A program made the translations under genes and the position numbers. This document shows, in pieces, positions 1,171 through 54,200 of a stretch of DNA of 64,000 nucleotides; the stretch's first letter is position 1, and each line of letters opens with the position of its first letter. Source of the DNA: Leucoraja ocellata (Eukaryota); NCBI GenBank assembly GCA_036785375.1, contig JAWMAR010000010.1, positions 9,362,001 through 9,426,000 of the forward strand, in the 5' to 3' direction. The notes under the pieces were generated by a model, which saw only the letters and a program-made list of their open reading frames with translations, ran no database searches and was not told the origin of the DNA.

Positions 1171-1247
1171 CCAGGAATGATCTGCCACAGAATTTCATTC
1201 CGAGAGATTTCCAGTACCGCATGAGGACACGTCGATCGGCAGAGAAA

Positions 1248-15410: not shown

Positions 15411-16560
15411 CGCAGTAAGTAGTGCCTTTCAACTTCAAGCCACACCCAAGCTACCATTTGCAGTAAGTAGTGCCTTTCAACTTCAAGCCAAAGCTCCCAA
15501 GCCACCATTTGCAGTAATAGTGCCTTTCAACTTCAAGCCTATGCACCCATGCCCCCCATTTGTAGTTAGTGCCTTTCAACTTCAAGCCACACCCAAGACA
15601 TCATTTGCAGGGAGTAGTGCCTTTCAACTTCAAGTCAAAGCTCCCAAGCCACCATTTGCAGTAAGTGGTGCCTTTCAATTTCAAGACACACCCAAACCAA
15701 GCCAACCAGGAGGCGAGGGGAGGAGGGGGGGGGGGGGGGGGGGACTTCAAGCCACACCCAAGCCACACCCTAGCCAATGCACCCACGCCCCCATTTGCAG
15801 TAAGTAATGCATTTTAACTTCAAGCCATTGCACCCAAGCCACCATTTGCAGTAAGTGGTGTCTTTCAACTTCAAGCCACACCCAAGCCATCATTAGCAGT
15901 AAGAGGTGCCTTTCAACTTCAAGTCAAAGCTCCCAAGCCACCATTTGCAGTAAGTAGAGCCTTTCAACTTCATGCCACCATTTGCAGTAAGTAGAGCCTT
16001 TCAACTTCATGCCACCATTTGCAGTGCCTTTCAACTTAATGCCAAAGCACCCAAGCTACAATTTGCAGTAAATAATGCCTTTCAACTTATTGCCAAAGCA
16101 CCCAAGCCACCATTTCAATGCCTTTCAACTTCAAACCACAATTTGCAGTAAGTAGTGCCTTTCAACTTCAAGCCAATGCACCCACGCCCCCATTTGCAGT
16201 AAGTAATGCATTTTAACTTCAAGCCAAAGCAACCAAGTCACCATTTGCAGTAATTAGTGCCTTTCAACTTCAAGCCAAAGCAACCAAGCCACCATTCGCA
16301 GTAATAGTGCCTTTCAACTTCAAACCAAAGCTCCCAAGCCACCATTGGCAGGAAGTAGTGCCTTTCAACTTCATGCCACCATTTGCAGTAAGTAATGCCT
16401 TTCAACTTCAAGCCACACCCAAGCCATCATTTGCAGGAAGTAGTGCCTTTCAACTTCAAGCCACCATTTGCAGTAAGTAGTGCCTTTCAATTTCAAGACA
16501 CACACAAACCAAGCCAACCAGGAGGCGAGGGGAGGGGAGGGGGGAAGGGGGGGGGGGGCT
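15411..16560 (+). repeat. Satellite I, 37-51 bp variant units (gcagtaagtagtgcctttcaacttcaagcc...caagccaccattt)
   Basis: Direct tandem units. The copy B array (~48415-50070) is longer and rearranged. Confidence 0.95.
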
Positions 16561-16579
16561 TTCTGGAGCGCTAGAATGA

Positions 16580-18110
16580 ACCATTTTAGAACCAATATAC
16601 TTTTTTTTGCAAGCTTTAGAACGAATAGAGACAATTCTTGCAAGCTTTAGAACCAATAGACTTTTTTTGCAAGCTTTAGAACCAACGGACATTTTTTTGC
16701 AAGCTTTAGAACCAATGGACATTTTTCTGCAAGTTTTAGAACCAATGGACATTTTTTTGCAAGCTTTAGAACCAATGGAAATGTTTTTGTAAGCTTTAGA
16801 ACCAATGGACATTTTTTTGCAAGCTTTAGAACCAATAGACATTTTTCTGCAAGCTTTAGAACCAATGGACATTTTTGTGCAAGCTTTTGAACCAATGGAA
16901 ATTTTTTGTAAGCTTTAGAACCAATGGACATTTTTTTGCAAGCTTTAGAACCAATAGACGTTTTTTTTGCAAGCTTTAGAACCAATAGACATTTTTTTGC
17001 AAGCTTGAGAACCAATATACATTTTTTGTTGCAAGCTTGAGAACCAATAGAGCCACTTTTTGCAAGCTTTAGAACCAATAGACATTTTTTTTTGCAAGCT
17101 TTAGAACCAATGGACATTTTTCTGCAAGCTTTAGAACCAATGGACATTTTTTTGCAAGCTTTAGAACCAATGGACTTTTTTGCAAGCTTTAGAACCAATG
17201 GACATTTTTTTGCAAGCTTTAGAACCAATGGACATTTGTTTTGCAAGCTTTAGAACCAATAGAGACCCATTTTGCAAGCTTTAGAACCAATAGACATTTT
17301 TTGCAAGCTTTAGAAACAATGAACATTTTTTTTGCAAGCTTTAGAGCCAATGGACATTTTTTGCAAGCTTTAGAACCAATGGACATTTTTTTTTTGCTAG
17401 CTTTAGAACCAATAGAGACACATTTTGTAAGCTTTAGAACCAATCGACATTTTATTGCAAGCTTTAGAACCAATAGACATTTTTTGCAAGCTTTAGAACC
17501 AATAGACATTTTTTGCAAGGTTTATAACCAAGACATTTTTTTTGCATGCTTTAGAACCAATAGACATTTTTTTGCAAGCTTTAGAACCAATATACATTTT
17601 GTTTGCAAGCTTTAGAACCAATAGACATTTTGTTTGCAAGCTTGAGAACCAATATACATTTTTTGTTGCAAGCTTGAGAACCAATAGAGCCACTTTTTGC
17701 AAGCTTTAGAATCAATAGACATTTTTGCAAGCTTTAGAACCAATAGAGACACTCTTTGTAAGCTTTAGAACCAATCGCCACTTTTTTGCAAGCTTTAGAA
17801 CCAATAGACATTTTTGCAAGCTTTAAAACCAATAGACATGTTTTGCAAGCTTTAGAACCAATAGACATTTTTTTTGCAAGCTTTAGAACCAATAAACATT
17901 TTTTTGCAAGCTTTAGAACCAATAGACATTTTGTTTGCAAGCTTTAGAACCAATAGACATTTTTTTTGCAAGCTTTAGAACCAATAGACATTTTGTTTGC
18001 AAGCTTTAGAACCAATTGACATTTTTTTGCAAACTTTAGAATCAATAGACACTTTTTGTAAGCTTTAGAACCAATAGACACTTTTTGCAAGCTTTAGAAC
18101 CAATAGACAC
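16580..18110 (+). repeat. Satellite II, ~30-31 bp units (ttgcaagctttagaaccaat(a/g)gacattttt) with a HindIII site in most units
   Basis: About 50 tandem units. Copy B: ~50085-51710. Confidence 0.97.
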
Positions 18111-18508
18111 AATCTGCACTATTGGTTCTAAAGCATGCAAAAAAAAATTAGAACCACTAAGGGCACTTACATTTGAGTAGACATGTGTTCAGTGTTATTC
18201 ACAGTTCAGAGAAACGTGACCCTCTGCCTTCCTCCAGCTTGCAGACACTGATTGAGGCACACAACTTCCTGGTTTTATAGTCCCTCCCCCCTGCCGCCAG
18301 CGGGGGCAGCAGAGAGAATGGGGAATTTTGTAAAAATGTTAATATCTCTGTCATTGTTAATCGACGGAAAAAATCCTCGGCACACATGCGGCGGAGGCGG
18401 GCTCTGAGCGAAGTGGCCAAAAATGACGGCCGTAGGTGGCGCCGTTCTCTCGGAAATCGCAGCACAGATCGCCAAAACCGGTGAAGAACAGAGTTTTAGT
18501 AATATAGG
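18110..18508 (-). mobile_element. Helitron-like non-autonomous element 5' region, contiguous with both satellites
   Basis: Minus strand begins (c)ctatattactaaaact, resembling the TCTATA..AAAA start of non-autonomous Helitrons. No TIR or TSD seen; 3' CTAG end not located. Confidence 0.4.
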
Positions 18509-22945: not shown

Positions 22946-23581
22946 TGTAAACCTTTCAAAACAACCTAAGGTCCAAAAACACAAAGCAGATAGTGTTGTT
23001 CTTGCATTATGCCACGGAGAGTAGTCCCAATCACTATTCAAATTACTCTGGGCCCAATAACTGTAGTCGCCGTTACCCTGATAGTGCGCTGAATGGGCCA
23101 AATACAATCAAACGAGACAAGTCCATGATACCCAACCAGTGGGATGAGTAGATTGCGTCGCTTTGTGTCTCCGTGTGGACCATTCTTATTTGGGGAGCGA
23201 TATTCCCTCACTGCCCGCCTTGAAAAGCCGCACCAACGTCCAAGTGAAAGTATACCCAAGATGGGTTCGAGGCAAATCGATCTGAATTAATTTACTATCC
23301 GTTGATGTAATGTGATCCCAGCTAATTCCCGATGTTGACGATTAATTCTTAATGTCTATCCTTGTCTCTTGCCCGTTCTAGACTCCATACCCAGAATTAT
23401 ACCCACGTACTTTGCTGGTCTCTCTGACGGTGCTGGCTGCATCAGGTGCACTCTCGTTGCTTTGAACCATTTTTCGGAATTTTCGACAGACATATACCAA
23501 TATATTATGATATTGCTTAGTGCTTGGTGGAGCAGACAGTTCGTCACGCCGACCTATTTGGCGAAGATAGTCACTGCATAA

Positions 23582-24209
23582 GGGGAGGTTGCGAAAAGCT
23601 TCTCCTGGAACTTTGGCACAGGGAGGTTTCACGGCAGTCGGGTCACGACCCATGACCCGTACTGTTGCTACGCTACTCCAAATGGATTACACGCGATGAA
23701 CTGCAGGTAGGCACTTACCATTGGTTCCAGCGGAGCGGGCCCGTTAAAACCCGCTGAAATTGACAATTTTTGCGCTGTAAATAATTATGGAAATCGGGAT
23801 AAGCGTGTGAGACATTTAGCCTACTTCAGAAATCCAAGGAATTCCAAAGGAATCAAGAAAAACACAAATAATGCCTTACTTGATGAAATGCAGCGAGCAA
23901 ACGCGATAATTCCCAATATTTGGATGTTTACCAAGCACTTTAGCTGCTGTAGTCACTTCAGTTCTCGCTTCTCTATACCTTCATTTCGCTTCACGTTTGG
24001 AATTCTAAAGTTGGGTACATGTCTCTCACACTTACTCCCACAATTTTTTTCAGCGCAAAAATTCAACATTTTGGCGGTTTTTAACAGGTAGGAAAGTACG
24101 CGTTTCTAGCATTAATAACATATACGGGAAGTGACGGATGTCTTCCAGTTGGATTTAGCGGATCCGTGCGTCGAGCCCTATGACCCGGTGACCTTACGTG
24201 CAACCCCCC
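23582..24209. mobile_element. PIF/Harbinger-like MITE
   Basis: Termini GGGGAGGTTGC...GCAACCCCCC flanked by TAA on both sides (3-bp TSD). Copy B: 62553-63175. Confidence 0.7.
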
Positions 24210-24699
24210 TAAACAAATGCACTCAAATATATATGACCTTAACGTCATCGGCCAACCGAGCGCGCAATGGCCGCATAATCGAAGTGATTCCTATTCTACC
24301 AGCCAGTGGCGATTTGAGAGAAATCATCTTTCGGGAAATGGTGGAGCACGAAGAAATACGAGCGCGCATTTAGCGTAAGGTGCTGGTTCCTTCGAGAAAC
24401 GAACATAGCAAAACAGGTTCGGCTTTATGAAGTTACGCTTTTATTTGTGATTGAACAGAAAACATATTACGGAGAAGCTTTTAAAAACATAACACGAAGT
24501 GGTCAAAACAACTGAATTCCACACGAGAACGGGTACTCTCAACATTTAGCTCGAGAGTCGAAGGTTAGCTCTGAATTAAGGAAACGACAATTGTGCAGAA
24601 AAGGAGTAAATAGATATTTGCTGATACGTGGAATGTGCGCACGCGTTTGTATTTTCGGGTATGTATTTACACATGCATTTACATTACATTTTATTTACG

Positions 24700-24912
24700 G
24701 GTCTTCGGTTAGGCCGCACTTGGAGTATAGTGTGGAGGGAATAATGTGGAGGCTTTGGAGAAGATGCAGAAGAGGTTTACTAAAATGCTGCAGGGTTTAG
24801 AGTTATTAGCAAAAAAAAAGTGGTTAGCTAAACATGGATTGTTTTCTTTGGAGCATCGGAGGTTGAAGGAAGACCCGATAGAAGTTTTTAGAATAATGAC
24901 AGGCATAGATAG
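24700..24912 (+). mobile_element. Old CR1 fragment
   Basis: VRPHLEYSV..EKMQKRFTKML..GLFSLEHRRL. Copy B: ~63670-63880. Confidence 0.8.
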
Positions 24913-25235
24913 TGTGTCTGAATTTAACATGAAGTTTGCGACCTCACGCAAACAGCGTTCCCGACACTCTATACAACGGCATTCAACACCGGAATGACTC
25001 GAATATTGCTCATGTAAATAAAAAGAATAGAAAAGTATAGAAAAAACGATTTTTTTAAAAACCATGTATACCGTTTGAGAAAATCGACTTATTTTCACAT
25101 GATATTCGAATTACGATTAAAATAGTTTGATACATTAACGATATACTAAAGGCGACTAAGCAATATCAAACGAGTCTGATCGACAGAATGAACTATTGCT
25201 TATGATATTGTTCGTTTCAGATTGGAACATTTCCC

Positions 25236-27432
25236 TTGGTTACAACGGATGTGTTCAGGACAGCAGCATCCTATGATGACCTCATCAACATCGAGGAGTA
25301 CGCAGAGACTGTAACCAGCTGCATTGCCAAGTGCACTGAGGATGTCACCATGAAAACTTTCACTGCACGTGGTAACGAAAATCCATGGATGACAGCAGAG
25401 GTGCGCTCGCTGCTGAGGGCTCGTTATGCAGCCTACAGAGCCGGTAACACAGCCGCTCTCCGATCCACCAGGACTGCACTGGGAAAAGGAATCAGGGCAG
25501 CGAAACGTGCCTTCGCGGGGAAAATCCAGGGACACCTCTGCGACACAGGAGACACCAGGAGGATGTGGAAGGGAATCGAAACATTGACGGGGTACAAGGC
25601 AAGGCAGCAGGTAACCGACACGGACACTTCTCTCCCAGATAAATTAAACAACTTCTTTGCACGTTTTGATGCAGCAAACACCACACCCAAGAGGAGAGCC
25701 AGCCCCTGCCTACAAACCGACCAGCCAGTCCTGACCATAGACAAAATGGACACACGGAGAATCCTGTCTAAGGTCAACCCGTGGAAAGCAGTCGGACCCG
25801 ACAACATCCCAGGACGTGTGCTAAAGGAATGTGCTGAGGAGTTAGCAGATGTGCTAACAGACATCTTTAACATCTCCCTTAGTCAGGCCATTGTCCCCAC
25901 ATGCCTCAAAACTTCCACGATAATCCCCATAGCGAAGAAACCAGTGGTTGCCTGCCTAAATGACTACCGCCCTGTCGCCCTGACCCCAATAATAATGAAG
26001 TGTTTTGAACGCCTGGTGAAACCCCACATTACTGCCAGCCTCCCCTCATCGTTAGACCCCCTACAGTTTGCCTATCGCCCCAACCGCTCTACAGAGGATG
26101 CCATCTCCACCACGCTGCACACAGTAATCGCGCATCTGGAACACAAGAACACATACGCCAGAATCCTGTACATTGACTTCAGCTCAGCGTTTAATACCAT
26201 CATCCCACAGAGACTTGTGGAGAAACTAACCCTGCTGGGCCTCAACACCACCCTGTGTCACTGGATCTTGGACTTTCTGACAGAGAGACCGCAGTCAGTC
26301 CGTGTTGGCAAGAACACTTCAGGCTCGATCACGCTGAGCACCGGCTCCCCTCAAGGCTGTGTGCTCAGCCCGCTGTTGTTCACACTGCTCACACATGACT
26401 GTGCTGCCAGATTCAGGGACAATAAAATCATAAAGTTCGCGGACGACACTACAGTGGTGGGACTCATCAGTGGAGATGACGAAACAAGGTACAGGGAGGA
26501 AGTAGAACAACTGGTGGACTGGTGCGGCAAAAATAACCTGGAATTGAATGTCGAAAAAACTAAGGAGATGGTTGTCGACTTCAGGAGGGCGCAGCCAGAG
26601 CATACACCGCTCAACATTAGTGGCACTGCAGTGGAGAGAGTGGAGAGCATAAAGTTCCTCGGTGTGCAGATAACGGACAACCTCACCTGGTCCAGGAACA
26701 CCACTGGGACCGTCAAATGGGCCCATCAGCGACTGCACTTCCTGAGGAAACTAAAACAGGCCTCACTCCCCACCAACATCCTCAGGACTTTCTACAGGGG
26801 CACGGTGGAGTCTGTACTCACGTACTGCATCAATACGTGGTACTGCACCTGCAACTGCTCGGACAGGAAGGCTCTGCAGAGGGTAGTGAGGGGAGCAGAG
26901 AGGATTATTGGCGTCTCCCTACCCTCGGTACAAGAACTGTTCCAGAGCCGCTGTCTGAAGAAAGCACAGAGAATTGCCAAGGACAAACTGCACCCCCTCC
27001 ACACACACCTGGATCTCTTGCCATCAGGCAAGAGATATCGAAGCATCAAAGCCCGGACTACGAGGCTGCTAAACAGCTTCCTACCACAGGCGGTGAGGCT
27101 GCTAAACAGTCACTCTGCACTCACAGTCACTTGACTTGACTCTGCGGCTGGCACGGACACTTTAATAACTGGCACTGGCCACTTAAATCAGCGGCCCCGG
27201 ACATTTTTTTTATGATTGGTTTACTGTATTTTAACATTGTGTTTTTTACCTGATTTTAACTATTTATTCTGTTCCATCAGGGACTGGATTGTTTTTTTAG
27301 TGTTATTATGTGAGAAGTGTTTTAAATTTCATGTGCGAGGCTCCGCTATTCATTGGGAAACGTCTTTTCATTTTGCACTGTACTTGTTGCTTGCAAGATG
27401 ACAATAAAGGTTGATTGATTGATTGATTGATT
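25236..27432 (+). mobile_element. Young 5'-truncated Rex1/Babar LINE with an uninterrupted 632-codon RT ORF (25236-27134)
   Basis: [58 protein letters not shown]; AATAAA followed by a (GATT)n tail at 27402-27432. Confidence 0.93.
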
Positions 27433-27449
27433 GATATTGTCCACGGACC

Positions 27450-27544
27450 GCTCAGGAAGAACAGGATAATGAAAGTGGGAGCGGTTGTCCAGATGTTGTC
27501 TCTGATTTCCTCATAGTCCTCAAGGCGAACGTCGTCGGCGTAAT
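27450..27544 (-). pseudogene. IGHM: Ig heavy-chain transmembrane exon (TM1), truncated
   Basis: Acceptor ttctgtag|AT. In phase with the Cmu4 internal donor it reads DYADDVRLEDYEEIRDNIWTTAPTFIILFFLS: an acidic spacer plus the NIWTTASTFIVLFxLS-type motif. Homology ends ~17 bp before the Rex1 LINE tail. Confidence 0.88.
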
Positions 27545-28247
27545 CTACAGAAAGCAGAACGCGAAGACATTCACAATGTGTTCTAATATAGAACATTGTA
27601 TTTTATTTACTTACCAAAATAATACGAATATTAATATTGCGGATATAAATCTACTAGGAACAGTTTTTATGTTGAGGTAATCACCCTCAACAAATATATA
27701 CAACATCATGGCCATTTGTAGCCACAGCAGCTAATAAAGAACCGTTTATGAATTGTTTTGGAGAAAGCCATGTGTATGTATATTTCTGGGATTACTCGTT
27801 CATTCTATAAACGTCCGCTTCCCATTAATATAATTTACTAACCGGGATGGTATAAACATTGAAACTGGTTAATGCTTACAATGTTATCAGACAAACCTTT
27901 ATTTGGAGTTGGTGACCGGAGCCGGGCGAAGGAACTCACTGAATGCAAACATTGGCTCCCAATCATTTGCCATAATTCCCACATTAGAACCCTGTTGTCT
28001 GATGTATCCTGTTTTCGGATAAGTAATGGAGGAAGGGTTGTGTACAAAAATAGCTTTAAACCATTGTATAGCCAATATATTTTCTAGTGTAGAATATGGA
28101 GCACGAATTAATCTATGGTTACACTTAGTCTTTTGGAACGCGTGGAAAACTACTGATTAAATGATCTGATTTGCCCTTCCGTTTGCCTGTAACTGGGTAG
28201 ATGTGCGTGAATAAGTATAAGCTTGCTCAGATCCTAACATAGTTTTC

Positions 28248-28621
28248 NNNNNNNNNNNNNNNNNNNNNNNNNNNNNNNNNNNNNNNNNNNNNNNNNNNNN
28301 NNNNNNNNNNNNNNNNNNNNNNNNNNNNNNNNNNNNNNNNNNNNNNNNNNNNNNNNNNNNNNNNNNNNNNNNNNNNNNNNNNNNNNNNNNNNNNNNNNNN
28401 NNNNNNNNNNNNNNNNNNNNNNNNNNNNNNNNNNNNNNNNNNNNNNNNNNNNNNNNNNNNNNNNNNNNNNNNNNNNNNNNNNNNNNNNNNNNNNNNNNNN
28501 NNNNNNNNNNNNNNNNNNNNNNNNNNNNNNNNNNNNNNNNNNNNNNNNNNNNNNNNNNNNNNNNNNNNNNNNNNNNNNNNNNNNNNNNNNNNNNNNNNNN
28601 NNNNNNNNNNNNNNNNNNNNN
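28248..28621. other. Assembly gap followed by a (GT)n-rich microsatellite (28622-28725)
   Basis: N run abutting gtgt repeats. Confidence 1.
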
Positions 28622-29106
28622 CTGTGTCTGTGTATGTGTGCTTGTGTGTGTGTCTGTCTGTGTGTGTGTGTGCTTGTGTGTGTGCGTGTCTGTGTATGTG
28701 TGCTTGAGTGTGAGTGCGAGTGTATATAATGCATGTGTTGTAGAAAATCTGTTTCAACATCAATCAGCATTTGTGAAGAAGAAATATATTATATGAGTCA
28801 ACATATCTGCTAACGTGTATTGTCACGGGGAATTTGCTGTGAAAGTCCATTGGTATTAAAGTGAGCGCCTAAATGTATTTGTGTTGTATTAAAGTTTTTT
28901 TTTAATTTTGTGTGCAAATATGTGCTTTTAGTTAACCGTTCCTATTATTTTGCATTTCACATTATGTTTGAATGCTGGTCTGTTTAGGTGGATGTCCATG
29001 TACTATGGTGTATATATGTCGTTAGTTCCTGAAGACTTTCAGCGATAACATTGTCTTTTCATTAATATATGGAGGTTCCACTCTCATTCCTTCTTTTTGA
29101 ACGCGT

Positions 29107-29235
29107 NNNNNNNNNNNNNNNNNNNNNNNNNNNNNNNNNNNNNNNNNNNNNNNNNNNNNNNNNNNNNNNNNNNNNNNNNNNNNNNNNNNNNNNNNNNNNN
29201 NNNNNNNNNNNNNNNNNNNNNNNNNNNNNNNNNNN
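29107..29235. other. Assembly gap followed by a (GT)n-rich microsatellite (29236-29298)
   Basis: N run abutting gtgt repeats. Confidence 1.
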
Positions 29236-29853
29236 TGTGTATGTGCGCGTGTGTGTATGTTTGTGAGTCTGTGTGTGTGTAGGTGAGTGTGTGTGTGTTT
29301 ATATTGTTAATCCTCGTGCAATTGTGTGCAAATATGTTGAGTACATGACACTATGTAAAGGTTTCATGTGATTTTGCAGATGGGTGTTTCGATAATAAGA
29401 CAGTGCATGCGCATTTCAATCTATATGTGGAAATAGAAATGTGTGCAGAAATATGCGTGACAGACGCACTGGAAATTGCCGGTTCCCCTCATGCGGGTGG
29501 AGGAGGGCGGGTTGCTACTTTTTTTTCTCGGAGCGGCAGGCCCTACTAAGCGCGACGTCTCAGATCCTGCCTCAGGTCTGATTGGATTGGAAACAGGAGA
29601 AGGAGGGAAACGGAGATCCAAAGACATGGACCCATATCTGCCCAGCAAGAGCAATAATGTTGAAGTGTGTCCGCGATCAGCTGTGACTTATCTCCAAAAC
29701 CCCGAGGTTACTGTGCAGTCTGCATCCGTTTTCCGTGAATTGTCGCCAAGATTTTCAAGTATCAACGTTAATATACCGTCATCGTTTTGGCAAATGTTCT
29801 ATACAATTCATTGGGTGGCCACGTGTTCAGCTCAAGATTTGAAGTTAAAGGTA

Positions 29854-29863
29854 TTTATTTATT
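29854..29863 (-). terminator. AATAAA polyadenylation signals for the secretory-form Ig mRNA
   Basis: Two overlapping tttatt on + (AATAAA on -), ~45 bp downstream of the tailpiece codons. Confidence 0.55.
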
Positions 29864-29902
29864 AGTATTTATTTCAGCGAAAATTGAAACGAATTCATTC
29901 GT

Positions 29903-30276
29903 ATTGACAGTGTCCATCAATACAAGAGAAACGTTGACAAAACTAGGTTTACCGCTGGACATATTGACCGTTCTGCCGATGGTCTTCATGGGGAGTGCTT
30001 CGTGCCCCACCAGACAGGAGAAGAGTACTCCGCTAGCCCACTGCTCTGCCCCAACGGATAACAGGCTGTAAGTGAAGAAGGTGTCATTGCCGTTCTCCAC
30101 CACCGCCTCGGTGTTCCGGTACTTGCTCCAATGCTTGTCATCAACTGTTCACGCGACGAAGATCCTGCGAGGGGAGAATACTCTCACAAAGCAGGTGAGG
30201 ATGATAGTCTTGTGCGCGGAGATTTCTTCTGTCGGCGGCAGAAGGACTGAGACGGACAGTGTCAGCAGATGTTCAC
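29903..30276 (-). pseudogene. IGHM: Immunoglobulin mu heavy-chain Cmu4 exon plus secretory tailpiece (pseudogene)
   Basis: Acceptor ccgtag|GT at 30276. Reads (G)[123 protein letters not shown]. This is a C1-set domain with both Cys and an elasmobranch IgM-type tail. The core Trp codon is TGA (30149-30151) and the tail Cys/stop is lost. Internal donor AGCG|GTAAAC at 29953. Confidence 0.9.
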
Positions 30277-30469
30277 CTACGGAACAATTCAAACGGCGTT
30301 TATTATACAAGACGTTTAAACTGATTAAAAGCTAATATTCGTACGTGAGTAAACTGCCAACAGGCAGTATTAACGGTATTGCATTCCCCTTTAGTGACTT
30401 GTCTCTTTGTTCAGCCAAGTACACCCGAATGTGCGTCTCTTCGGTGCACGGCAGAAGATGTGTATGAAA

Positions 30470-30835
30470 TCCGAAGTGTCAGTGATGCAGTTGAACAAAG
30501 GGGATTATGAAGGCATGAGAGAGGAGCTGGCCAAGGTAGACTGGAAAGGGATCCAAGCAGGAATGACGGTGGAACAGCAATGGCAGGAATTTCTGGGCAT
30601 AATCCTGAAGACACAGGATCATTTCATTCCAAATAGGAAGAAAGATTCCAAGGGGAGTAGGAGGCAACTGTGGATAACGAGAGAAGTCAGGGATAGAATA
30701 AAACTAAAATAAATGATGTACAACACAGCAAAGAGCAGCTGGAAGATAGACGATTGGGAAGTTGGCAAGGAATATAAAGAAGGACAGTAAAAGCTTCCTT
30801 AGATGTTTTAAGGGAAAGAGAATAGCAAAGTCAAA
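30470..30835 (+). mobile_element. CR1 ORF2 linker fragment
   Basis: LNKGDYEGMREELAKVDW..WITREVRD. Confidence 0.8.
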
Positions 30836-31297
30836 TGGTAGGGATGAAGATCCAGACTGGACTACATATGGAAGTGCAGCATGCATAATTTGTGTGGTGA
30901 TGGATATAGTAAAGGCAGGCTAATATGGTTAATCTACAGTGAGAGACTGAAAAAACCGAGATAGTTGAAATCGTATTCTGCCACCTATCCAGTAAAGGGG
31001 AGAGGAAAAGTGGTGAATGGGTGAAGGGCGAGAGTAAGAGGGTAAAACAGAATATTTGGGAGGTACAGTATAAGGGGAGAGAGTGCGAGGGGGAAGAATA
31101 GATAGAGGGGTCAGGAATAAGGTAAGGAGTGAAGAGAGGTAGAGTGACAGGGAAGAAGGGGAGAGGGGAAAGAAGGATGCTAAATGGAGGCAAACACGAA
31201 GGAGGTGTTAGGGAGGGAATATGCGGGAGGATAGTAGAGAGGTTCAAATAAGGAGGAAGGTAGGGAGAGAGGAATGGCAAGGACAGGGCATAGCGAG

Positions 31298-32120
31298 ATA
31301 GACAATAGACAATTAACTATAGGCGCAGCAGTAGGCCATTTGGCCCTTTGAGCCAGCACCGCCATTCAATGTGGTCATGGCTGATAATCTACAATCAGTA
31401 CCCCGTTCCTGCCTTCTCCCCATATCCCGACTCCGCTATCCTTAAGCGCCCTATCTAGCTCTCTCTCTTGAAAGTATCCAGAGAACCGGCCGCCACCGCC
31501 CTCTGAGGCAGAGAATTTCACAGACTAACAATTCTCTGTGTGAAAAAGTGTTTCCTCATCTCCGTTCCAAATGGCTTACCCCTTATACTTAAACTGTGGC
31601 CCCTGGTTCTGGACTCCTCCAACAACGGGAACACGTTTCCTCTGCCTCTCGCGTGTCCAAACCCTTGATAATCTTATATGTTTCAATAAGATCCCCTCTT
31701 ATCCTTTTAATTTCCGATGTACAAGCCGAGCTGCTCCATTCTCTCAGCATATGACAGTCCCGCCATCCCGGGTATTAACCTTGTGAAACTAGGCTGCACT
31801 CCCTCAATACCTAAATGAGCTTTTACTATCCTCCTTTATATTCTTGGCTAGCTTACCTTCGTACCTCATATTTTCTCCCCGTATTGCCTTTTTCGTTATC
31901 TTCTGTTGCTCTTTGACATTACCCAATCCTCTGGCTTCCCGGTCATCTATGCTATGCTGTACTTCTCACATACGATGGTCACTACCTCCTAATGGCTCCT
32001 TAACCTCAAGTTCCTTTACCAAATCGGGTTCCTTACACAACACTAAATCCAGAATTGCCTTCTCCCAGGTAGGCTCCAGTACAAGCTGCTCTAAGAATCC
32101 ACAAACTCCCTTTCTTGGGG
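31298..32120 (-). mobile_element. CR1 3' end plus internally deleted upstream fragments
   Basis: (AGACAAT)n tail, 3'UTR, and EPTWEKAILDLVL..LGGSDH (EN). Confidence 0.85.
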
Positions 32121-32159
32121 TCCAGTACCAGATAGTTAGAAATTGAGTTTCCGTGGTAT

Positions 32160-32900
32160 ATAGTGAAGAGAAAGGGTGAGAGAGAAAATTGTGGCAAGGA
32201 TTCAGAGATGGAAAGTTAAAGAGAATGGGGAGGTGGACAGGTGAACGAGCGACAGGATACGGGGAGAACGCCAAGACGTCGAAAGGGGAATATAGTGAGA
32301 GGGAATGCTGGAGAGAGGTGGCAAGAGTGAGTGAAAGCAAATGTGCTCATTATGAATGAGAGAATGAGCATGGGGTAAGATACGGTTGGAGAGAGAAATC
32401 GAGAGGGACATGAAGTGAGAGTGTGAAGTGAGCCAGATACGGAGTGAGAGGGATTGCGAGTAGGAAAGATGGTGAGTGGGAAAGAGATAGGTAGTGTGAG
32501 AGAGGGAATGGGAGATATATCGATTGAGTGTGGGAGAAGGTCGTGGGAGAGAGATCTCGAAGCGAGGCGGGAAGGAGAGTTGGTGAAGACAGATAAAACG
32601 ATAGAGTGATAGGAGAAATAGAGAAAGGGAGGAAATGGAAGAGGGAGAATGAAGGGATGGGTGAGGGACAATAGGAAAGTGGAAGGGAGAAGGGAGGTCA
32701 GAGCGCCTGGATAGGAGGTGATTGTTAGTCAATGGGACAGAAGAGGAGAGAGTTGTGTCAGGGTGATACAGGGAAAGCGAGGGGGAAATACATCAAGAGC
32801 TGGAGGAGGGGTGGGGTAAGGGAAAGACGACTGGTTGTAGCAGAGGAAAGGTGCAGAGAGAGATGAGAGAGACTGTCAGAGAGAGCCGTCAGAGAGTGTG
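32160..32900 (+). repeat. Purine-rich (GA) low-complexity tract; a second tract at ~30990-31298
   Basis: Strong A/G strand bias with no clear unit. Confidence 0.85.
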
Positions 32901-34555
32901 AATAAAAATAAGGAATGGAGTGCAGGGAGTTGTATCATTTTCTGGTTTTTGGACAAGTCTCTGTTGCTCTCTGGATGTCGTGAGACTCTGCGATATTCCT
33001 CCTCTGGGTTAATGACGACAGATAATTGTATTGTCCGAGGCAAAGCCAGATACATTCGAAGTCAGCAAGGAATGAATGGGTAACGTTGGCGCCGGAAGTG
33101 TGTTGCTGTGATGAGCAGCGATCAAAATGAGTAGCGAAGCCGATTGACGAAGGCGATCTGTTGGACTAATTCCTAACCTGTGGACAAAAGTCACCCCGTC
33201 GATCTTCAGACTGCGCGCCCGAAGCCCCGACGGTTTCCATGGATGTTGGGATTGCCTTGGTAAGTAAAGCGGATTGAAGGAAATTAGACAAACAACATGT
33301 TGGAGAGTTGGATCTGATGGAGTTTGAAAGAATATCCCCTTTGCTGGACCAATGCCAGTCTGAAGAAGAGTCTCGACCCGAAACATAGACACATAGAAAT
33401 TAGGTGCAGGCGTAGGCCATTCGGCCCTTCGAGCCTGCACCGCCATTCAATATGATCATGGCTGATCATCTAACTCAGTATCCCGTACCTGCCTTCTCTC
33501 CATACCCTCTGATCCCTTTAGCCACAAGGGCCACATCTAACTCCCTCTTAAATATAGCCAATGAACTGGCCTCAACTACCCTCTGTGGCAGAGTTCCAGA
33601 GATTCACCACTCTCTGTGTGAAAAAAGTTCTTCTCATCTCGGTTTTAAAGGATTTCCCCCTTATCCTTAAGCTGTGACCCCTTGTCCTGGACTTCCCCAA
33701 CATCGGGACCAATCTTCCTGCATCTAGCCTGTCCAACCCCTTAAGAATTGTATAAGTTTCTATAAGATCCCCTCTCAATCTCCTAAATGCTAGAGAGTAT
33801 AAACCAAGTCTATCCCGTCTTTCTTCATAAGACAGTCCTGACATCCCAGGAATCAGTCTGGTGAACCTTCTCTGCACTCCCTATATGGCAACAATGTCCT
33901 TCCTCAGATTTGGAGACCAAAACTGTACGCAATACTCCAGGTGTGGTCTCACCAAGACCCTGTACAACTGCATTAGAACCTCCCTGCTCCTATACTCAAA
34001 TCCTTTTGATATGAAAGCCAACATACCATTCGCTTTCTTTACTGCCTGCTGCACCTGCATGCCTACCTTCAATGGTGTAGCATGACACCCAGGTCTCGCT
34101 GCATCTCCCCCTTTCCCAATCGGCCACCATTTAGATAATAGTCTGCTTTCCCGTTTTTGCCACCAAAATGGATAACCTCACATTTATCCACATTATACTG
34201 CATCTGCCAAACGACGCCTATTCCTTCTCTCCAGAGACGCTGCCTGACGCGCTGAGTGAGTTACTACAGCATGTTGTGTCTTACCCACTCCCAATTTCCA
34301 TCCTCAGTATCGCCACAGTATCCTAGTCGTTGCAATTTCGCAATCAATGCCCTGAATTATTCACAGCGGGGATTGCAATTGGCTGAAGTAATGTCTTTGC
34401 GAATAATTACGCAATCTCTATTTTTAATTCTGTTGAAACTGCACTGTCCCAGTGGAGACGCTAAACGGCATAAAATCTCCAGGAATGATCTGCCACAGAA
34501 TTTCATTCCGAGAGATTTCCAGTACCGCATGAGGACACGTCGATCGGCAGAGAAA

Positions 34556-37500
34556 ATGCTTGACGAATATCGCACTGCCGCGAAAATATTATACGTGGTC
34601 ATTGCTGTCGTTGGAGTCCCTGGTAAGTAAGCAAAACAATTCAAGTTTTAGAACTCAGTTTGCTAACTAGAGTTGACAGTATTCGTATTATGTTGCAAGC
34701 TTCCAAACTGATCGTCGTTGGAAAAGAGTTAGTCAATGCCATAAATTCTTTCTGTTAAATATCCTGACTTTTTGCTGTTGTTTTTAATTATTTTCGAACA
34801 TTGGAAACTAACCTTTTTCTATACCTGCCGTGACCCATTGGAATGCAATTCTTACCTTCAGTGGAACCTTGCCCAGATTTAACCCAGCGCCCGGGACAGG
34901 CATGGTGTGAATGGGAGGGGTTTACATTGCGACGTCCACTGTGTCTGAGTTATTGATCGGAGTAAACAGCCGGTCCCGTGGACATGTCTCACTATGGTAT
35001 CTATCACAGTCGATTACACCGCCTGATGATCAGTAATTGGATTGATCACCTGAAACAAATCCCGTGGATTTACCGGCGTGTGTTGTTACCGACTGGAAAT
35101 CACTGTGGATGGAATCAATTAACGCAGCCACTCTGCTGCTGGATACTAAGTTGGCCCTGTCTTTCCATTGGAGCCCTCGCAGTCCCCATCAGATGCCGAG
35201 TTCCGTGAGCCCTGGCAAAACCATGGCCGTTCACGGTTAACTCGATGTAACCGGCCCCATCAGAGACGGTGGATAGGGTGAATTATAGAAAGGACCATTC
35301 CGCCTAGTAGTGGATGGCTGCTCATTCGCTTCCCGCTCTTTACCCCGCCCATCGCCTTATCTTTGCCCCCCCCCCTGAACCGACAGTTCGGACACAGTCT
35401 GACAATGTTTCAAAATGTTGATTTTTAGCTGAAAGTCGAACCGGTGAACTGCCCCGGACAACGTGTTCAGAAAGCGGGAATCAAGAGGATAGGGTCATGT
35501 TCAAAGAGAAACCGAAGACAATTAGAAAGGCAATGCGGGGATAAAAGATGAGGTTCGAAGGTAAGCTAGCCTAGAATATAAAGGACAGCAAAAGCTTATT
35601 TAGGAATATGAAGAGGAAAACACCAGTTAAGACCCTTGAAGACCGAAAAATGTATTGTTGGGAACAAATGGCTGATGTGTTGAACCGATACTTTAGATCT
35701 ATCACACAATCTTCCTGATGTAGTGGTGGCCATTAGATCTGGGTTGACGGAGGAACTGAAGGAAATCCACATTAGGCAGGAAATAATGTTGGCTAGACTG
35801 ATGGGACTGAAGGCTGATAAATCCCCAGGACCTGATGGTCTGCATCCCAGGTTACTTAAGGAAGTGGCTCCAGAAATTGTGGACGCAATGGTAATCATTT
35901 TCCAATGTTCTATAGATTCAGGATCAGATCCCGTAGATTGGGGGGTAGCTAATGTTATTTCACTTTTTAAGAAATGCATGAGAGAGAAAACAGGGAATTA
36001 TAGACCAGTTAGCCTGACATCGGTGGTGGGGAAGATGCTGGGGTCAATTATAAAGGAAATAAAACCGTGAATGAAATAGCGGCACATTTTGCTAACAGGA
36101 TTAGTCCGAGTCAGCATGGATTAACGAAGGTTAAATCATGCTTGACTAATCTTCTGGAATTTTTTAGGATGTAATTAGGAAAATGGCCAGTCGGGTGTGG
36201 TGTACCTGAACTTTCAGAAAACATTTGATAAGATCCCACATAGGAGATTAGTGGGCAAAAGTATGGCATATGGTATTGGGGGTAGAGTGCTGACATGGAT
36301 AGAAAACTGGTTGGCAGACAGGAAACAAAGAGTAGGGATTGACGGGTCCCTTTCAGAATCGCTGGCAGTGATTTGTGGGGTACCGCAAGGCTCGGTGTTG
36401 GGAGCAGCTATTTACAATATACATCGATGATTTAGATTTATTTTCAAAGTAACATTAGAAAATTTGCAGATAACACAAAGCTGGGAGCAATGTGAACCGT
36501 GAGGAGGATGGTGCGAGAATGGGTGGATGCAGGGTGATGCTGTGTGACTTGGACAGGTTGGGTGAGTGGGCAGATGCATGGCAGATGCAGTTTAATGTGG
36601 ATAAATGTGAGGTTGTCCACTTTGGCTGCAAAAACAGGAAGGCATATTATATCTAAATGGTGTCTAGTTGACAAAAGGGGAAGTGCAACGGGATGTGGCG
36701 GTTCTTGTTCATCAATCAATGAAAGTAAGCTTGCAGGTACTACAGGCAGTGAAGAAAGCGAATGGCATGTTGGCCTTCATAACAAGAGGAGTTGGGTATC
36801 GGAGCAGAGGTCCTTCTGCAGTTGTACAGGGCCCTAGTGAGACCACACCTAGCGTATTGTGTGAGGTTTTGAGGAAGGACAATCTTGTTATTGAGGGAGT
36901 GCAGTGTAGGTTCACAAGGTTAATTCCCTGGATGGCGGGACTGGCATATGGTGAGCGAATGGAGCGACTGGGCTTGTATTCTCTGGATTTTAGAAGGATG
37001 AGAGGCAATCTTATCGGAACATAAAATATTATTATGGGTTTGGACACGCCAGGGGGCGGAAACATGTTCCTGAGGAGACCAGAACCCGGGGCCACAGTTC
37101 AAGAATAAGGGGTATGGCAATTAGAACGGAGATGAGGAACTTTTTTCACACAGAGAGTTGTGAGTCTGTTGTGAGAGTTGTGGAGACCGGTTCTCTGGAT
37201 ACTTTCAAGAGAGAGCTAGATAGGGTTCTTAAAGATAGCAGAGTCAGAGGATATGGGGAGAAGGCAGGAACGGGGTACTGATTGTGGATGATCAACCATG
37301 ATCACAGTGAATGGCGGTGCTGGTTCGAATGGCCGAATGGCCTACTCCTGCACCTTTTGTCCATTGTCTATAATGCCCAGTGTCCGTCTCCTTCTCTTTC
37401 TGCAGCGAATATAGTAGCGATTGTGATCCTGTCCCGAGGAAAGATTGGCCTCTCCACATGCACCACTCGCTATCTGATGGCCATGGCAGCGGCCGATCTA

Positions 37501-38313
37501 CTGGTGGTTATCATCGAGGTAATTTTGTTCCGGCTCCGATATTTTTACTTCCAGTGGACTTTCCTATTCATTTCACCGACGTGCAGTGTCATCGCCGTTT
37601 TAACGTATATAGCTACAGACTGTTCAGTCTGGTTCACCATCTTTTTCACCTTTGATCGGTTTGTCGCCATTTGTTCCCAGAGGCTGAAAAGAACATATTG
37701 CACCGGGAAAACTGCGACTGCTGTTCTCGCAACAGCCGGCGTCCTGCTATGTCTGAAAAACGTTCCCCGCTACTTCACACTGCGCCCCGTAGTGATCATA
37801 GACAATGTCCCCTGGGGCTGTTTCGCGATGGATACTTTTTTCACTGACCCCGGGTGGGTGGCATTTGACTGGATCGACACCGTTTTAAATCCACTCCTCC
37901 CTTTCTCTGTAATCATGCTGCTCAACGCTCTGACAGTCCGGCACATTGTGGTGGCCAGTCGGGTGCGTAAGTGGCTGATGGGTCAGAGCAAGGGGGAGAA
38001 CCGTATTGACCCGGAGATAAGGAGCAGGAGGCGGTCTATCATTTTGCTCTTCACCATTTCCGGAAGCTTCATGCTCCTGTGGCTGATGAAAGTTGTTGAA
38101 TTCATTTATTATCAGATCACAAGAACTGAGAACAATCTGACACTGTCTGAATGGGTCTTTAACAACATTGGATTTTTGCTGCGAAATCTCAGCTGCTGCA
38201 CCAACACATTTATTTACGCGGCCACACAGTCCAAGTTCAGGGAAGAGTTGAAGAGCGCGTTGAAATATCTGGCCACACAGTGCTTCGGCTCTTTATTAAA
38301 TCGGCGCGCTTAG
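34556..38313 (+). CDS. Two-exon orphan class A GPCR, GPR139/GPR142-like, copy B; join(34556..34622,37406..38313), 324 aa
   Basis: Same splice sites and exon lengths (67 + 908 nt) as copy A, intact frame, 15 amino-acid differences. Confidence 0.9.
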
Positions 38314-48235: not shown

Positions 48236-51200
48236 CCAATGCAAATGTGTGAAATCATGTGAGTATGTTTGAGTGTGCGTGAATGTGGGAGTGTGGAAGA
48301 ACGCGTGAGTGTGTGTGAAGTTGTGCGATTATGGGTGCGAAGCAATATGTGGGTCTGCGAGGTTGTAACTGAGTGAATGTGTGTGAACGTGCCCACATTT
48401 CCGAGTTTTATACTTCAACTTTCAACTTCAAGCCAATGCACCCACGCCCCCATTTGCAGTAAGTAATGCATTTTAACTTCAAGCCATTGCACCCAAGCCA
48501 CCATCTGCAGTAAGATGTGCCTTTCAACTTCAAGCCACACCCAAGCCATCATTTGCAGTAAGTGGTGTCTTTCAACTTCAAGCGAAAGCAACCAAGCCAC
48601 CATTTGCAGTAAGTAGTGCCTTTCAACTTCATGCCACCATTTGCAGTAAGTGGTGTCTTTCAACTTCAAGCCACACCCAAGCTACCATTTGCAGTAAGTA
48701 GTGCCTTTCAACTTCAAGCCACACCCAAGCTACCATTTGCAGTAAGTAGTGCCTTTCAACTTCAAGCCAAAGCTCCCAAGCCACCATTTGCAGTAAGTAG
48801 TGCTTTCAACTGCAAGCCAAAGCACCCAAGCCACCATTTGCAGTAAGTAGTGCCTTTCAACTTCATGCCACCATTTGCAGTAATACCTTTCAACTTCAAG
48901 CCAATGCACCCATGCCCCCCATTTGCAGTTAGTGCCTTTCAACTTCAAGCCACACCCACGACATCATTTGCAGGGAGTAGTGCCTTTCAACCAAGTCAAA
49001 GCTCCCAAGCCACCATTTGCAGTAAGTGGTGCCTTTCAATTTCAAGACACACCCAAACCAAGCCAACCAGGAGGCGAGGGGAGGGGGGGGGGGGACTTCA
49101 AGCCACACCCAAGCCACACCCAAGCCACCATTTGCAGTAAGTAGTGCCTTTCAACTGCATGCCACCATTTGCAGTAAGTGGTGTCTTTCAACTTCAAGCC
49201 ACACCCAAGCCACCATTAGCAGTAAGAGGTGCCTTTCAACTTCAAGTCAAAGCTCCCAAGCCACCATTTGCAGTAAGATGTGCCTTTCAACTTCATGCCA
49301 CCATTTGCAGTGCCTTTCAACTTAATGCCAAATCACCCAAGCCACCATTTGCAGTAAGTAGTGCCTTTCAACTTCAAACCACAATTTGCAGTAAGTAGTG
49401 CCTTTCAACTTCAAGCAAATGCACCCACGCCCCCATTTGCAGTAAGTAATGCATTTTAACTTCAAGCCATTGCACCCAAGCCACCATTTGCAGTAAGTAG
49501 TGCCTTTCAACTGCATGCCACCATTTGCAGTAAGTAGTGTCTTTCAACTTCAAGCCAAAGCAACCAAGCCACCATTGGCAGTAAGTAGTGCCTTTCAACT
49601 TCAAACCAAAGCTCCCAAGCCACCATTGGCAGTAAGTAGTGCCTATCAACTTCATGCCACCATTTGCAGTAAGTAATGCCTTTCAACTTCAAGCCACACC
49701 CACGCCCCTCATTTGCAGGAAGTACTGCCTTTCAACTTCAAGCCAAAGCAACCAAGCCACCATTGGCAGAAAGTGGTGCCTTTCAACTTCAAGCCACACC
49801 CAAGCCATCATTTGCAGGAAGGAGTGCCTTTCAACTTCAAGCCACAATTTTCAGTGAGTAGTGCCTTTCAACTTCGTCAAAGCTCCCAAGCCACCATTTG
49901 CAGTAATAGTGCCTTTCAACTTCAAGCCAAAGCTCCCAAGCCACCATTTGCAGTAAGTAGTGCCTTTCAACTTCATGCCACCATTTGCAGTAAGTAGTGC
50001 CTTTCAATTTCAAGACATACCCAAACCAAGCCAACCAGGAGGCGAGGGGAGGGGAGGGGGGGGGGGCTTTCTGGTGCGCTAGTATGGACATTTTAGAACC
50101 AATATACTTTTTTTTGCAAGCTTTAGAACGAATAGAGACAATTCTTGCAAGCTTTAGAACCAATAGACATTTATTTGCAAGCTTTAGAACCAATGGACAT
50201 TTTTGTGCAAGCTTTAGAACCAATGGACATTTTCCCGCAAGCTTTAGAACCAATGGACAATTTTTTGCAAGCTTTAGAACCAATGGAATTTTTTTTGTAA
50301 GCTTTAGAACCAATGGACATTTTTTTGCAAGCTTTAGAACCAATGGACATTTTTTTTGCAAGCTTTAGAACCAATAGACATTTTTTTGCAAGCTTTAGAA
50401 CGAATAGACATTTTTGTTGCAATCTTGAGAACCAATAGAGCCACTTTTTGCAAGCTTTAGAACCAATAGACATTTTTTGCAAGCTTTAGACCCAATGAAC
50501 GTTTTTTTGCAAGCTTTAGAACCACTGGACATTTTTTTGCAAGCTTTAGAACCAATGGACATTTTTTTGCAAGCTTTAGAACCAATGGACATTTTTTTCC
50601 AAGCTTTAGAACCAATAGAGGCACATTTTGCAAGCTTTAGAACCAATAGACATTTTTTTTGCAAGCTTGAGAACCAATAGAGACACTTTTTGCAAGCTTT
50701 AGAACCAATATACGTTTTTTGCAAGCTTTAGACACAATGAACATTTTTTTGCAAGCTTTAGAACCAATGGACATTTTTTGCAAGCTTTAGAACCAATGGA
50801 CATATTTTTGCAAGCTTTAGAACCAATGGACATTTTTTTGCAAGCTTTAGAACCAATAGACATTTTTGTTGCAAGCTTGAGAACCAATAGAGCCACTTTT
50901 TGCAAGCTTTAGAACCAATAGACATTGTTTTTGCAAGCTTTAGAACCAATGGACATTTTTCTGCAAGCTTTAGAACCAATGGACATTTTTTTGCAAGCTT
51001 TAGAACCAATGGACTGTTTCTGCAAGCTTTAGAACCACTGGACATTTTTTTGCAAGCTTTAGAACCAATGGACATTTTTTTGCAAGCTTTAGAACCAATG
51101 GACATTTTTTTCCAAGCTTTAGAACCAATAGAGACACATTTTGCAAGCTTCAGAACCAATAGACATTTTTTTTTGCAAACTTGAGAACCAATAGAGACAC

Positions 51201-54200
51201 TTTTTGCAAGCTTTAGAACCAATAGACGTTTTTTGCAAGCTTTAGACCCAATGAACATTTTTTTGCAAGCTTTAGAACCAATGGACATTTTTTGCAAGCT
51301 TTAGAACCAATGGACATTTTTTTGCAAGCTTTAGAACCAATGAACATTTTTTTTGCTAGCTTTAGAACCAATAGAGACACATTTTGTAAACTTTAGAACC
51401 AATCGCCACTTTTTTGCAAGCTTTAGAACCAATAGACATTTTTTGCAAGCTTTAGAACCAATAGACATTTTTTGCAAGCTTTATAACAAATAGACATTTT
51501 TTTGCAAGCTTTAGAACCAATAGACATTTTTTGCAAGCTTTAGAACCAATAGACATTTTGTTTTCAAGCTTTAGAACCAATAGACATTTTTTTGCAAGCT
51601 TTAGAATCAATAGACATTTATTGCAAGCTTTAGAACCAATAGAGACACTTTTTGTAAGCTTTAGAACCAATAGACACTTTTTTGCAAGCTTTAGAACCAA
51701 TAGACACAGTCTGCACTATTGGTTCTAAAGCTTGCAAAAAAATTTAGAACCACTAAGGGCACTTACATTTGAGTAGACATGTGTTCAGTGTTATTTACAG
51801 CTCAGAGAAAGGTGACCCTCTGCCTTCCTCCAGCTTGCAGACACTCATTGAGGCACACCACTTCCTGGTTTTATAGTCCCCCCCCCCCCTGCCGCCAGCG
51901 GGGGCAGCAGAGAGAATGGGGAATTTTGTAAAAACGTTAATATCTCTGTCATTTTTAATCGACGGGAAAAATCCTCGGCACACATGTGGCGGAGGGGGGC
52001 TCTGAGCGAGGAGGCTGCAAGGTGACTTGGATAGGCTGGGTGAGTGGGTAAATGTATGGCAGATGCAGTATAATGTGGATAAATGTGAGGTTATCCACTT
52101 TGGTGGCAAAATCAGGAAAGCAGACTTTTATCTAAATGGTGGCCGATTAGAAAATGGGGAGATGCAACGAGACCTGGGTGTCATGGTACACCAGTCATTG
52201 AAAGTAGGCATGCAGGTGCAGCAGGCAGTGAAGAAAGCGAATGGTATGTTAGCATTCACAGCAAAAGGATTTGAGTATAGGAGCAGGGAGGTTCTACTGC
52301 AGTTGTACAGGGTCTTGGTGTGACCACACCTGCAGTATTGCGTACAGTTTTGGTCTCCAAATCTGAGGAAGAACATTATTGCATAGAGGGAGTGCAGAGA
52401 AGGTTCACCAGACTGATTCTTGGGATGTCAAGACTTTCATATGAAGAAAGACTGGATAGACTGGGCTTGTACTCGCTAGAATTTAGGAGATTGAGGGGGG
52501 ATCTTATAGAAGCTTACAAAATTCTTAAGGGGTTGGACAGGCCAGATGCAGGAAGATTGTTTCCGATGTTGGGGAAGTCCAGGACAAGGCATCACAGCTT
52601 AAGGATAAGGGGGAAATCCTTTAAGACCGAGATGAGAAAAACATTTTTTCACACATAGAGTGGTGAAGCTCTGGAACTCTCTGCCACAGAGGGTAGTTGA
52701 GGCCAGTTCATTGGCTATATTTAAGAGGGAGTTAGATGTGGCCCTTGTGGCTAAAGGGATCAGGGGGTATGGAGAGAAGGCAGGTACGGGATACTGAGTT
52801 GGATAATCAGCCATGATCATATTGAATGGTGATGCAGGCTCGAAGGGCTGAATAGCCTACTCCTGCACCTATTTTCTATGTATCTATGTAACACTTACTC
52901 CAGTTGATGCAGCCCACAAAACCTTCTGGCAATCATGCAGTCTCTGCAGGTCAACAGAGTCAGTGAACATTTGGAGTACATCATGAGCAGAAGCCGAGAG
53001 AATCACCTCCACCCCCGGACCTGGTAGAGCCAGGCTTGTCAACCGCTTCCGAAAAAGCCATGGGACTGGTTCCACACAGACTGAGTACAACTGACCAGAC
53101 ATTGGGCACCCCTGGCGTACCCCTCCCCCAAAATAAATAGGAGCCAACAATGCACCGCTAATATTCACGAGACTCTCCGCTGCGGCGTACAAAAGCCGGA
53201 CCCGGGCCATAAAATGCGGTCCAAATCTGAACGCTCGCATCTTCCGCAAGAGGTAGTCTTGGTCTACCCTGTGAAAAGCCGTCTCCTGATCAAGGGACAG
53301 AAAAGCAGCTGACTGACCAGTTCCCTGAGATAGATTAATCAGGTCCCTAACCAGGTGGATGTTATCCTGAATGGACCGGCCAGGGACTGTATAGGACTGG
53401 TCAGTGTGGATCTGTTGGGACAGCACGGAGCCCAGACTATTTGCCATTCCCCGTGTAAAAACGTTATACAAAGTACAGAGGGGAGAGACCAGGTGCCAGT
53501 TGTCCAACAGGCAGAGATTGCCCTCTTTGGCAGCAGGACGATGACTCCCCGGTCGCCAGGCTCTTCCCCAGAACCTTCATGTAATCATCCCCCAGGACGC
53601 CTCAGAAGGCTGTAACAGAACTCTACCGTCAGCCCATTCAGCCCTGGGAACTTGCCCCTCCTGAGCTGGTACAGGGCACGAGTCAACTTCTCCAATGATA
53701 AGGGATCATCAAGGAGTTCAAACGCATATCTATCTACAGTCGGTAGACCCTCCCACAGGACCCGCTGAGCCTCCCCGCTGAATCCATCTGCGGAGAACAG
53801 GGACCCACAAAAGGACCGGACTGAAGCACTGATCTTCTATGGATCTGTAACAGAGGAGCCATCATCCATGAGCAGCTTGACGAGCTGTTTGCGAGGTCCT
53901 CGCACTTTCTCCAGAGAGAAAAGGAAAGGTGAAGCTCGGTCCAGATCGTGCAGCATCTGGACCCGCGACCTCGTGTAAGCACCTTGGGTCCACTCAAGCT
54001 GCAACTCCCTCAAGCCCCCTTCCTCTCCTGATACTCTCCCCACTCACAAGAATCCTCACCAATCTGCCCCAAGCGACACTCTGCATCGAGTAACTCCCTC
54101 TTGAGTCGCTCGACCGCCGTGTCCCGCCTTCTTGTCGAGCCCCAGGTGTATTCATAGAAACATAGAAACTAGGTGCAGGAGGAGGCCATTCAGCCCTTCG

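Follow-up and report, generated by a model that had tools for sequence, protein, structure and literature searches.

Cartilaginous fish carry their IgM genes as miniloci, V-D-J-Cmu1-4-TM clusters of which a genome holds dozens, and nurse shark IgM pseudogenes (Groups 6-8 and G2C) have been described (PMC2435157). Four Cmu domains are usual in shark IgM (PMC4279169), and one stated view is that Ig loci turn over by birth and death (PMC3308330). The skate locus analyzed here lies in a 64,000-nucleotide window (C10:9362001-9426000, on contig C10 of a 3.44-Gb assembly), and positions within it are given in window coordinates. Pieces of Ig genes found outside a working locus are called immunoglobulin orphons or truncated constant-region pseudogenes. 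The window holds an ordinary pseudogene in an unusual spot; the literature searched, which covered few subscription papers, contained no description of an IgM remnant in a receptor array.

Anatomy and isotype of the IgM fragment

The Cmu4 exon of the window shares 81% protein identity with a skate Ig terminal domain (E 2e-67), and therefore the resemblance to IgM is not a matter of chance. With X placed at the stop, the identity of the exon was 61-64% for the four named shark IgM chains compared, 38% for the three IgW chains and 32-39% for the three IgNAR chains. In a protein tree it grouped with the stop-free Cmu4 exons of the genome (100/99), outside the IgW/IgNAR clade (100/99), which also contains a second class of tailpiece exons of the skate genome. 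The identities and the tree placement ruled out an IgW or IgNAR origin, and as judged by these comparisons the isotype is IgM, in agreement with the preliminary description. One database entry under the name Aeromonas veronii, a protein with 68% identity to skate Cmu4, is probably host contamination, and C384 and C531 carry dozens of tandem C1-set Ig-domain exons, 10-15 kb apart, with 34-42% identity to Cmu4.

Of 433 candidates from the genome search, 150 were scored, and these gave at least 59 Cmu4 matches that are full-length and stop-free, with 96-100% identity; the closest database protein to an intact paralogue came from skate (96%). Five reference loci were read over 40 kb: V, Cmu1-4 and TM1 are complete in three (C10, C5 and C388), the other two (C404 and C1661) comprise Cmu3 onward only, and TM2 (GTCAAGTGA) is present in all five, J being seen in C388. 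At C404:1838085-1844032 and C1661:136117-141607, Cmu3-Cmu4-TM1 is intact, and no V, Cmu1 or Cmu2 lies in the 21-23 kb upstream. In the complete cluster at C388:2033122-2034200, V reads on beyond the CAR end with no recombination signal that matches, resembling a germline-joined VD gene; a J follows about 750 bp later.

Aligned to these loci at the DNA level, the IgM-derived DNA of the window starts on the minus strand at 30468-30471, about 190 bp inside the Cmu3-Cmu4 intron, and extends to at least 22959. The intron stub (30277-30471, delimited by the reference alignment) reaches up to the 5' breakpoint and is followed by the Cmu4 pseudo-exon (29953-30276), which starts at 30276 behind the acceptor CCGTAG/G and ends with the internal donor AGCG/GTAAAC at 29953. 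Next come the secretory tailpiece with its two AATAAA signals (29854-29952; signals at 29873-29868 and 29859-29854) and the Cmu4-TM1 intron (27545-29853), which is 77-87% identical to the reference IgM loci and includes two N stretches and (CA)n repeats. The acceptor CTGTAG/A at 27544 opens a 5' remnant of TM1 (27450-27544; DYADD...TTAPTFIILFFLS). The 3' UTR of the membrane form and the 3' flank (22959-25247) are collinear with the reference loci, pick up again at 25247 beyond a retroelement, reach to about 22960, and carry AATAAA at 24695 and 24445. All four kinds of processing signal noticed earlier from the letters alone (both acceptors, the internal donor and the secretory AATAAA) are thus in place on the minus strand. 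Since the introns were kept, the fragment moved as DNA and not as processed mRNA.

The coding parts bear several lesions. A TGA at 30151-30149, codon 42 of the exon, replaces the TGG found in the five aligned reference loci, as had been suspected for the invariant Trp, and the frame is open at this site in all 59 full-length stop-free genomic matches. Cmu4 has further lost 6 bp at 30133/30132 and gained one base near 30027; the insertion is common to other copies, and in the window copy it is cancelled by the loss of one base at 30023/30022. The penultimate Cys of the tailpiece, which in mammals has a role in polymer formation and J-chain binding, was correctly reported to be missing: a 10-bp deletion at 29903/29902 makes the tailpiece read DTVNTNEF instead of the intact DTVNSCQ-stop, so that Ser-Cys-Gln-stop is gone. 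TM1 reads TTAPTFIILFFLS and has TTAPTF for TTASTF, with no match beyond FFLS; the break, already visible in the preliminary description, is due to a 211-bp deletion between two copies of TTCCTGA (7-bp microhomology), which removed the end of TM1 including its donor, the TM1-TM2 intron and TM2.

No V, Cmu1, Cmu2 or Cmu3 exon was detected by tblastn (E<1e-4) within 364 kb (C10:9,162,001-9,526,000), which extends the earlier observation that no CH3 is recognisable in the 4 kb before the next receptor promoter; the sole match was a 29% cross-match of the Cmu2 query to the Cmu4 exon itself. Upstream of the fragments, no promoter, leader, V-D-J or Cmu1-3 was found in these 364 kb, nor on C3295 or C4713. 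The fragment would make no antibody chain.

The window copy also carries, on the plus strand at 25251-27432, a young, 5'-truncated non-LTR retroelement (RVT_1 and PF09004; 2.2 kb) with an open 641-aa RT frame, a (TTGA)n tail and a 3-bp target duplication. It was inserted about 15 bp beyond the TM1 deletion. The genome search gave 3272 candidates for the element; 40 were scored, and the 39 listed besides the window copy are all 99% identical. Disruption of TM1 by this element was ruled out, since the deletion is present in 10/10 copies of the fragment and the element in 1/10, namely the window copy.

A tandem unit shared with a GPR139-like receptor

The IgM fragment and a GPR139-like receptor gene with an open frame (34529-38313, plus strand) lie head to head; the two exons of the receptor span about 34529-34622 and 37406-38313. 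The receptor of the preceding unit is found at 1221-5029 (plus strand), its IgM fragment being just left of the window. Most of the 120 database matches listed for the receptor are named 'probable GPR139', and the family is large: there are at least 2198 matches at E<=1e-60 among 5703 candidates, and 118 of the 118 scored genomic candidates match. Another GPR139-like gene, 72% identical to the window receptor, lies at C10:4165095-4166003, 23 kb downstream of the intact IgM cluster to which the fragment is closest, and the IgM and receptor families are therefore neighbours.

The preliminary description had placed the rearrangement that joined the two genes within 30470-32900, and alignment to intact IgM loci of the same genome, the approach it had proposed for mapping the breakpoints, agrees with this: IgM homology stops at 30468-30471, and homology to the nearest outside receptor paralogue, C303, begins at 32732. 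The C303 receptor has 86-87% protein identity to that of the window, and the homologous upstream region (32732-34528, plus strand, 80-89% identity) is interrupted by CR1 at about 33380-34212. Between the two homologies stands a block of CR1 fragments in both orientations and purine-rich repeats (30469-32731). A CR1 fragment begins at the IgM break, and at 30467 the window sequence parts from reads and contigs that stem from other CR1 copies. The two sides of the break have 3-5 bp in common (AAATC against three of the five references, AATC against the other two). Two routes to the join fit the data: a truncated CR1 may have inserted first, with a repeat-mediated rearrangement after it, or the ends may have been joined directly by microhomology repair. 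Among 59 Cmu3 matches (150 of 224 candidates scored), none qualified as a reciprocal 5' half broken at the corresponding point. C1777, the only one of these matches without Cmu4, was rejected as the 5' partner because its break lies about 320 bp upstream of the window breakpoint, it is rejoined to its own 3' flank, and it shares 97% identity with the main family.

The fragment and the receptor lie together in a tandem unit of about 30-37 kb (33.3-kb offset within the window). Ten IgM fragments were found: C10 has six (9.244-9.429 Mb, one of them inverted), C3295 three and C4713 one. Every fragment has a receptor gene beside it in head-to-head orientation; on C3295 the contig stops after receptor exon 1 of the last unit. 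Each unit contains two adjacent minisatellite blocks, one with units of about 30 bp (15412-18417 and 48419-52015 in the window), whose length varies from unit to unit. Right of the array, at C10:9486492-9524601, there is an inverted duplication with arms of about 18 kb each, 97-99% identical, and a 200-N gap at its centre.

Most of the lesions are common property of the array. The single Ig/CR1 junction (30467-30471) occurs in 10/10 copies, as do the 211-bp TM1/TM2 deletion and the Ser-to-Pro change in TM1. The 10-bp tailpiece deletion was present in 9/9 aligned copies and was scored in the tenth by a pattern test; this test had missed copy A6, which bears a substitution, although the deletion is visible in the A6 alignment. 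All eight copies that keep the 5' part of Cmu4 have the TGA and the 6-bp deletion, and the single-base insertion is found in all eight that keep that stretch of the exon. The frame is kept when 29953 is joined to 27544 in the window copy, so the phase compatibility noted earlier holds there, but this frame is private: in 7/8 copies it is broken by the insertion. Furthermore, the Cmu4 acceptor is deleted in 2/10 copies and the pyrimidine tract of TM1 in 2/10, leaving both acceptors in 6/10. The emphasis of the preliminary description on retained secretory and membrane signals was consequently misplaced; with the insertion uncompensated in 7/8 copies and an acceptor lost in 4/10, they are leftovers. 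Its picture of an orphaned 3' half of an IgM minilocus stands as regards the missing 5' half; the fragment is, however, no lone orphan but exists in ten copies as the passenger of a repeated receptor unit.

Lesions common to the copies are older than the copying. In a DNA tree, the eight copies with an acceptor grouped into a single clade (stem 0.082, support 100/100), and the sister of this clade was the intact C10 cluster (93/87; 96/93 in the protein tree). The DNA-tree bootstrap for this donor assignment is below 95%, and the tree kept a truncated locus with a long artefactual branch (L118) as well as two array rows sharing a long branch, probably from intron indels. The array copies are 0.8-2.1% apart in the exon and 8-11.5% from the intact C10 cluster, so a long decay preceded a recent amplification.

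Substitution patterns differ between the two genes of the unit. Exon 2 of the receptor is open in eight of nine full-length copies, the ninth, in the inverted unit, being frameshifted. Among the distinct variant codons of the eight open copies, 31 are nonsynonymous and 28 synonymous (binomial p 9e-5; omega about 0.36). These counts are small, like all codon-change counts here, and not fully independent, as variants are shared between copies; omega against C303 was 0.43. By these codon counts, the receptor is under purifying selection. In the Cmu4 stem of the array, 12.5 nonsynonymous vs 1.5 synonymous changes fell on sites invariant in the five reference loci, compared with a neutral expectation of 76% nonsynonymous, and distinct reference pairs show 2-6 nonsynonymous to 7-13 synonymous changes. 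Within the array the sum is 16:8, and the exon and the non-coding parts of the fragment have diverged alike from C10 (8-11.5%). Cmu4 thus drifts neutrally.

Other public runs carry array-type DNA. The Logan contigs of X2 and X3, which come from different studies with different organism labels, include array-type pieces that have T at 30149 and lack the single-base loss of the window copy; others cross the junction, with 35 bases and 3 differences in X2 and 32 bases and 6 differences in X3. X1 provided a 150-bp array-type piece with no difference. One of these runs may be the assembly's own sample. Among the contigs listed, X15 and X18 (two other organism labels) are reference-type only, and as contigs cannot show absence, these runs do not date the fusion. 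Shared lesions, neutral substitutions and the T at 30149 in X2 and X3 all uphold the pseudogene status that had been proposed from the letters. With its introns and flanks kept, its disabling lesions and its neutral substitution pattern, the fragment would be classed on sequence grounds as an unprocessed (duplicated) pseudogene.

Origin of the unit and alternative readings

These findings led us to conclude that the locus is very probably the dead 3' end of an IgM gene, joined head to head to a GPR139-like receptor and copied tenfold in duplications that keep the receptor, with the IgM piece likely a neutral passenger. Given the long decay before the recent amplification, the IgM piece died first and was then amplified as a likely passenger. 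At the start, an IgM cluster copy that was probably related to the intact cluster lying 5.2 Mb away on C10 would have been cut in the Cmu3-Cmu4 intron at a CR1 fragment and brought beside the receptor upstream region, with the observed junction plausibly produced by a repeat-mediated or microhomology-mediated rearrangement. Devoid of a promoter and a V region, it would then have decayed, acquiring the stop codon, the frameshift and the tailpiece and transmembrane deletions. The duplication of the 30-37 kb unit in tandem, with one copy inverted, is directly seen in the assembly and may have proceeded by unequal crossing-over. Private changes would have followed in each copy, in the window copy the frame-restoring loss of a single base and the young retroelement.

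The IgM segment might instead be dead as a protein and still hold a B-cell enhancer or terminator that alters receptor expression and favoured the amplification of the unit. Enhancers 3' of IgM are known in teleosts, all ten copies have kept the fragment, which lies about 4 kb upstream of where the receptor starts and brings with it 2.3 kb of IgM 3' flank, and the receptor is under purifying selection. We nevertheless consider this unlikely, as the IgM-derived block contains no exact octamer, no segment of it is better conserved than its neighbours, pieces of it are deleted in several copies, and the receptor still has 1.8 kb of its own upstream region; the retention of the fragment follows from the size of the duplicated unit. 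The fuller version, in which the receptor captured the IgM 3' end with a B-cell enhancer, gained lymphocyte expression and was amplified tenfold because of that, is just as improbable. If true, it would be an exaptation of antibody-gene regulation by a G-protein-coupled receptor, and only if the fragment regulates the receptor would the locus be of wider interest.

Still less probable is a transcript that leaves the receptor promoter divergently, is spliced to Cmu4 and ends at the secretory or the membrane poly(A) site, giving a non-coding RNA or a short peptide. The acceptor, donor and AATAAA are present in the window copy, and the fragment is oriented divergently from the receptor promoter, but the exon has its stop at codon 42, only 6/10 copies keep both acceptors, and no array-type RNA read covered the exon in runs with almost no IgM reads. 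In those three RNA runs, chosen by species label, exon depth was zero in two and about two reference-type reads in the third; with so few IgM reads they are evidence neither for nor against silence of the fragment.

That the fusion or its copy number is an artefact of assembling a repeat-rich region is hardly credible: a 200-N gap lies inside the array at C10:9,276,309, where C3295 and C4713 may have their place, and four copies lie on two small contigs, yet the copies differ by 1-3% with private insertions and deletions, the small-contig units (C3295, C4713) are 1.7-2.8% from every C10 unit and are therefore probably extra paralogues, not alleles, and contigs of other runs bridge the junction.

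Comparison with truncated clusters and known systems

Truncated IgM clusters are common in the skate genome. At C1356:194316, C1461:51974 and C1544:127903, Cmu2 is joined to Cmu4-TM without Cmu3; no V or Cmu1 was present in the 16-17 kb read upstream, and Cmu2, Cmu4 and TM1 are open in two of the three. At C1777:101109-112314, V and Cmu1-3 are open and Cmu4 to TM2 is deleted, leaving at most a three-domain chain without a tail. In all four, the deletion of Cmu3 or of Cmu4-TM joins two copies of a repeat of about 520 bp that is present in the introns and 3' flank of the main IgM family. Counts of IgM clusters made with Cmu4 or TM probes would be inflated here: ten dead copies stand against the 59 full-length Cmu4 matches without a stop, and several of the latter belong to truncated clusters themselves. 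The array further indicates that antibody clusters and a large GPR139-like family are close enough to rearrange with each other, and its shared lesions put the events in a dated sequence and offer a yardstick of neutral change beside a receptor under selection.

The locus resembles three known systems and departs from each. As in the elasmobranch 'probable GPR139' expansion, the neighbouring gene belongs to the same family, has been duplicated in tandem and lies close to immune genes; what sets the skate sub-array apart is the IgM remnant in each unit. Like Ig orphons, the fragment is an Ig piece outside a working locus with its introns kept, but it shares its tandem unit with a gene that is apparently functional. 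Finally, it derives from the same kind of cluster as the IgM miniloci of cartilaginous fish, for which non-functional copies already belong to the known picture (PMC2435157); unlike those, the skate fragment comprises Cmu4 onward only, is fused to an unrelated gene, and was amplified with that gene after its death.
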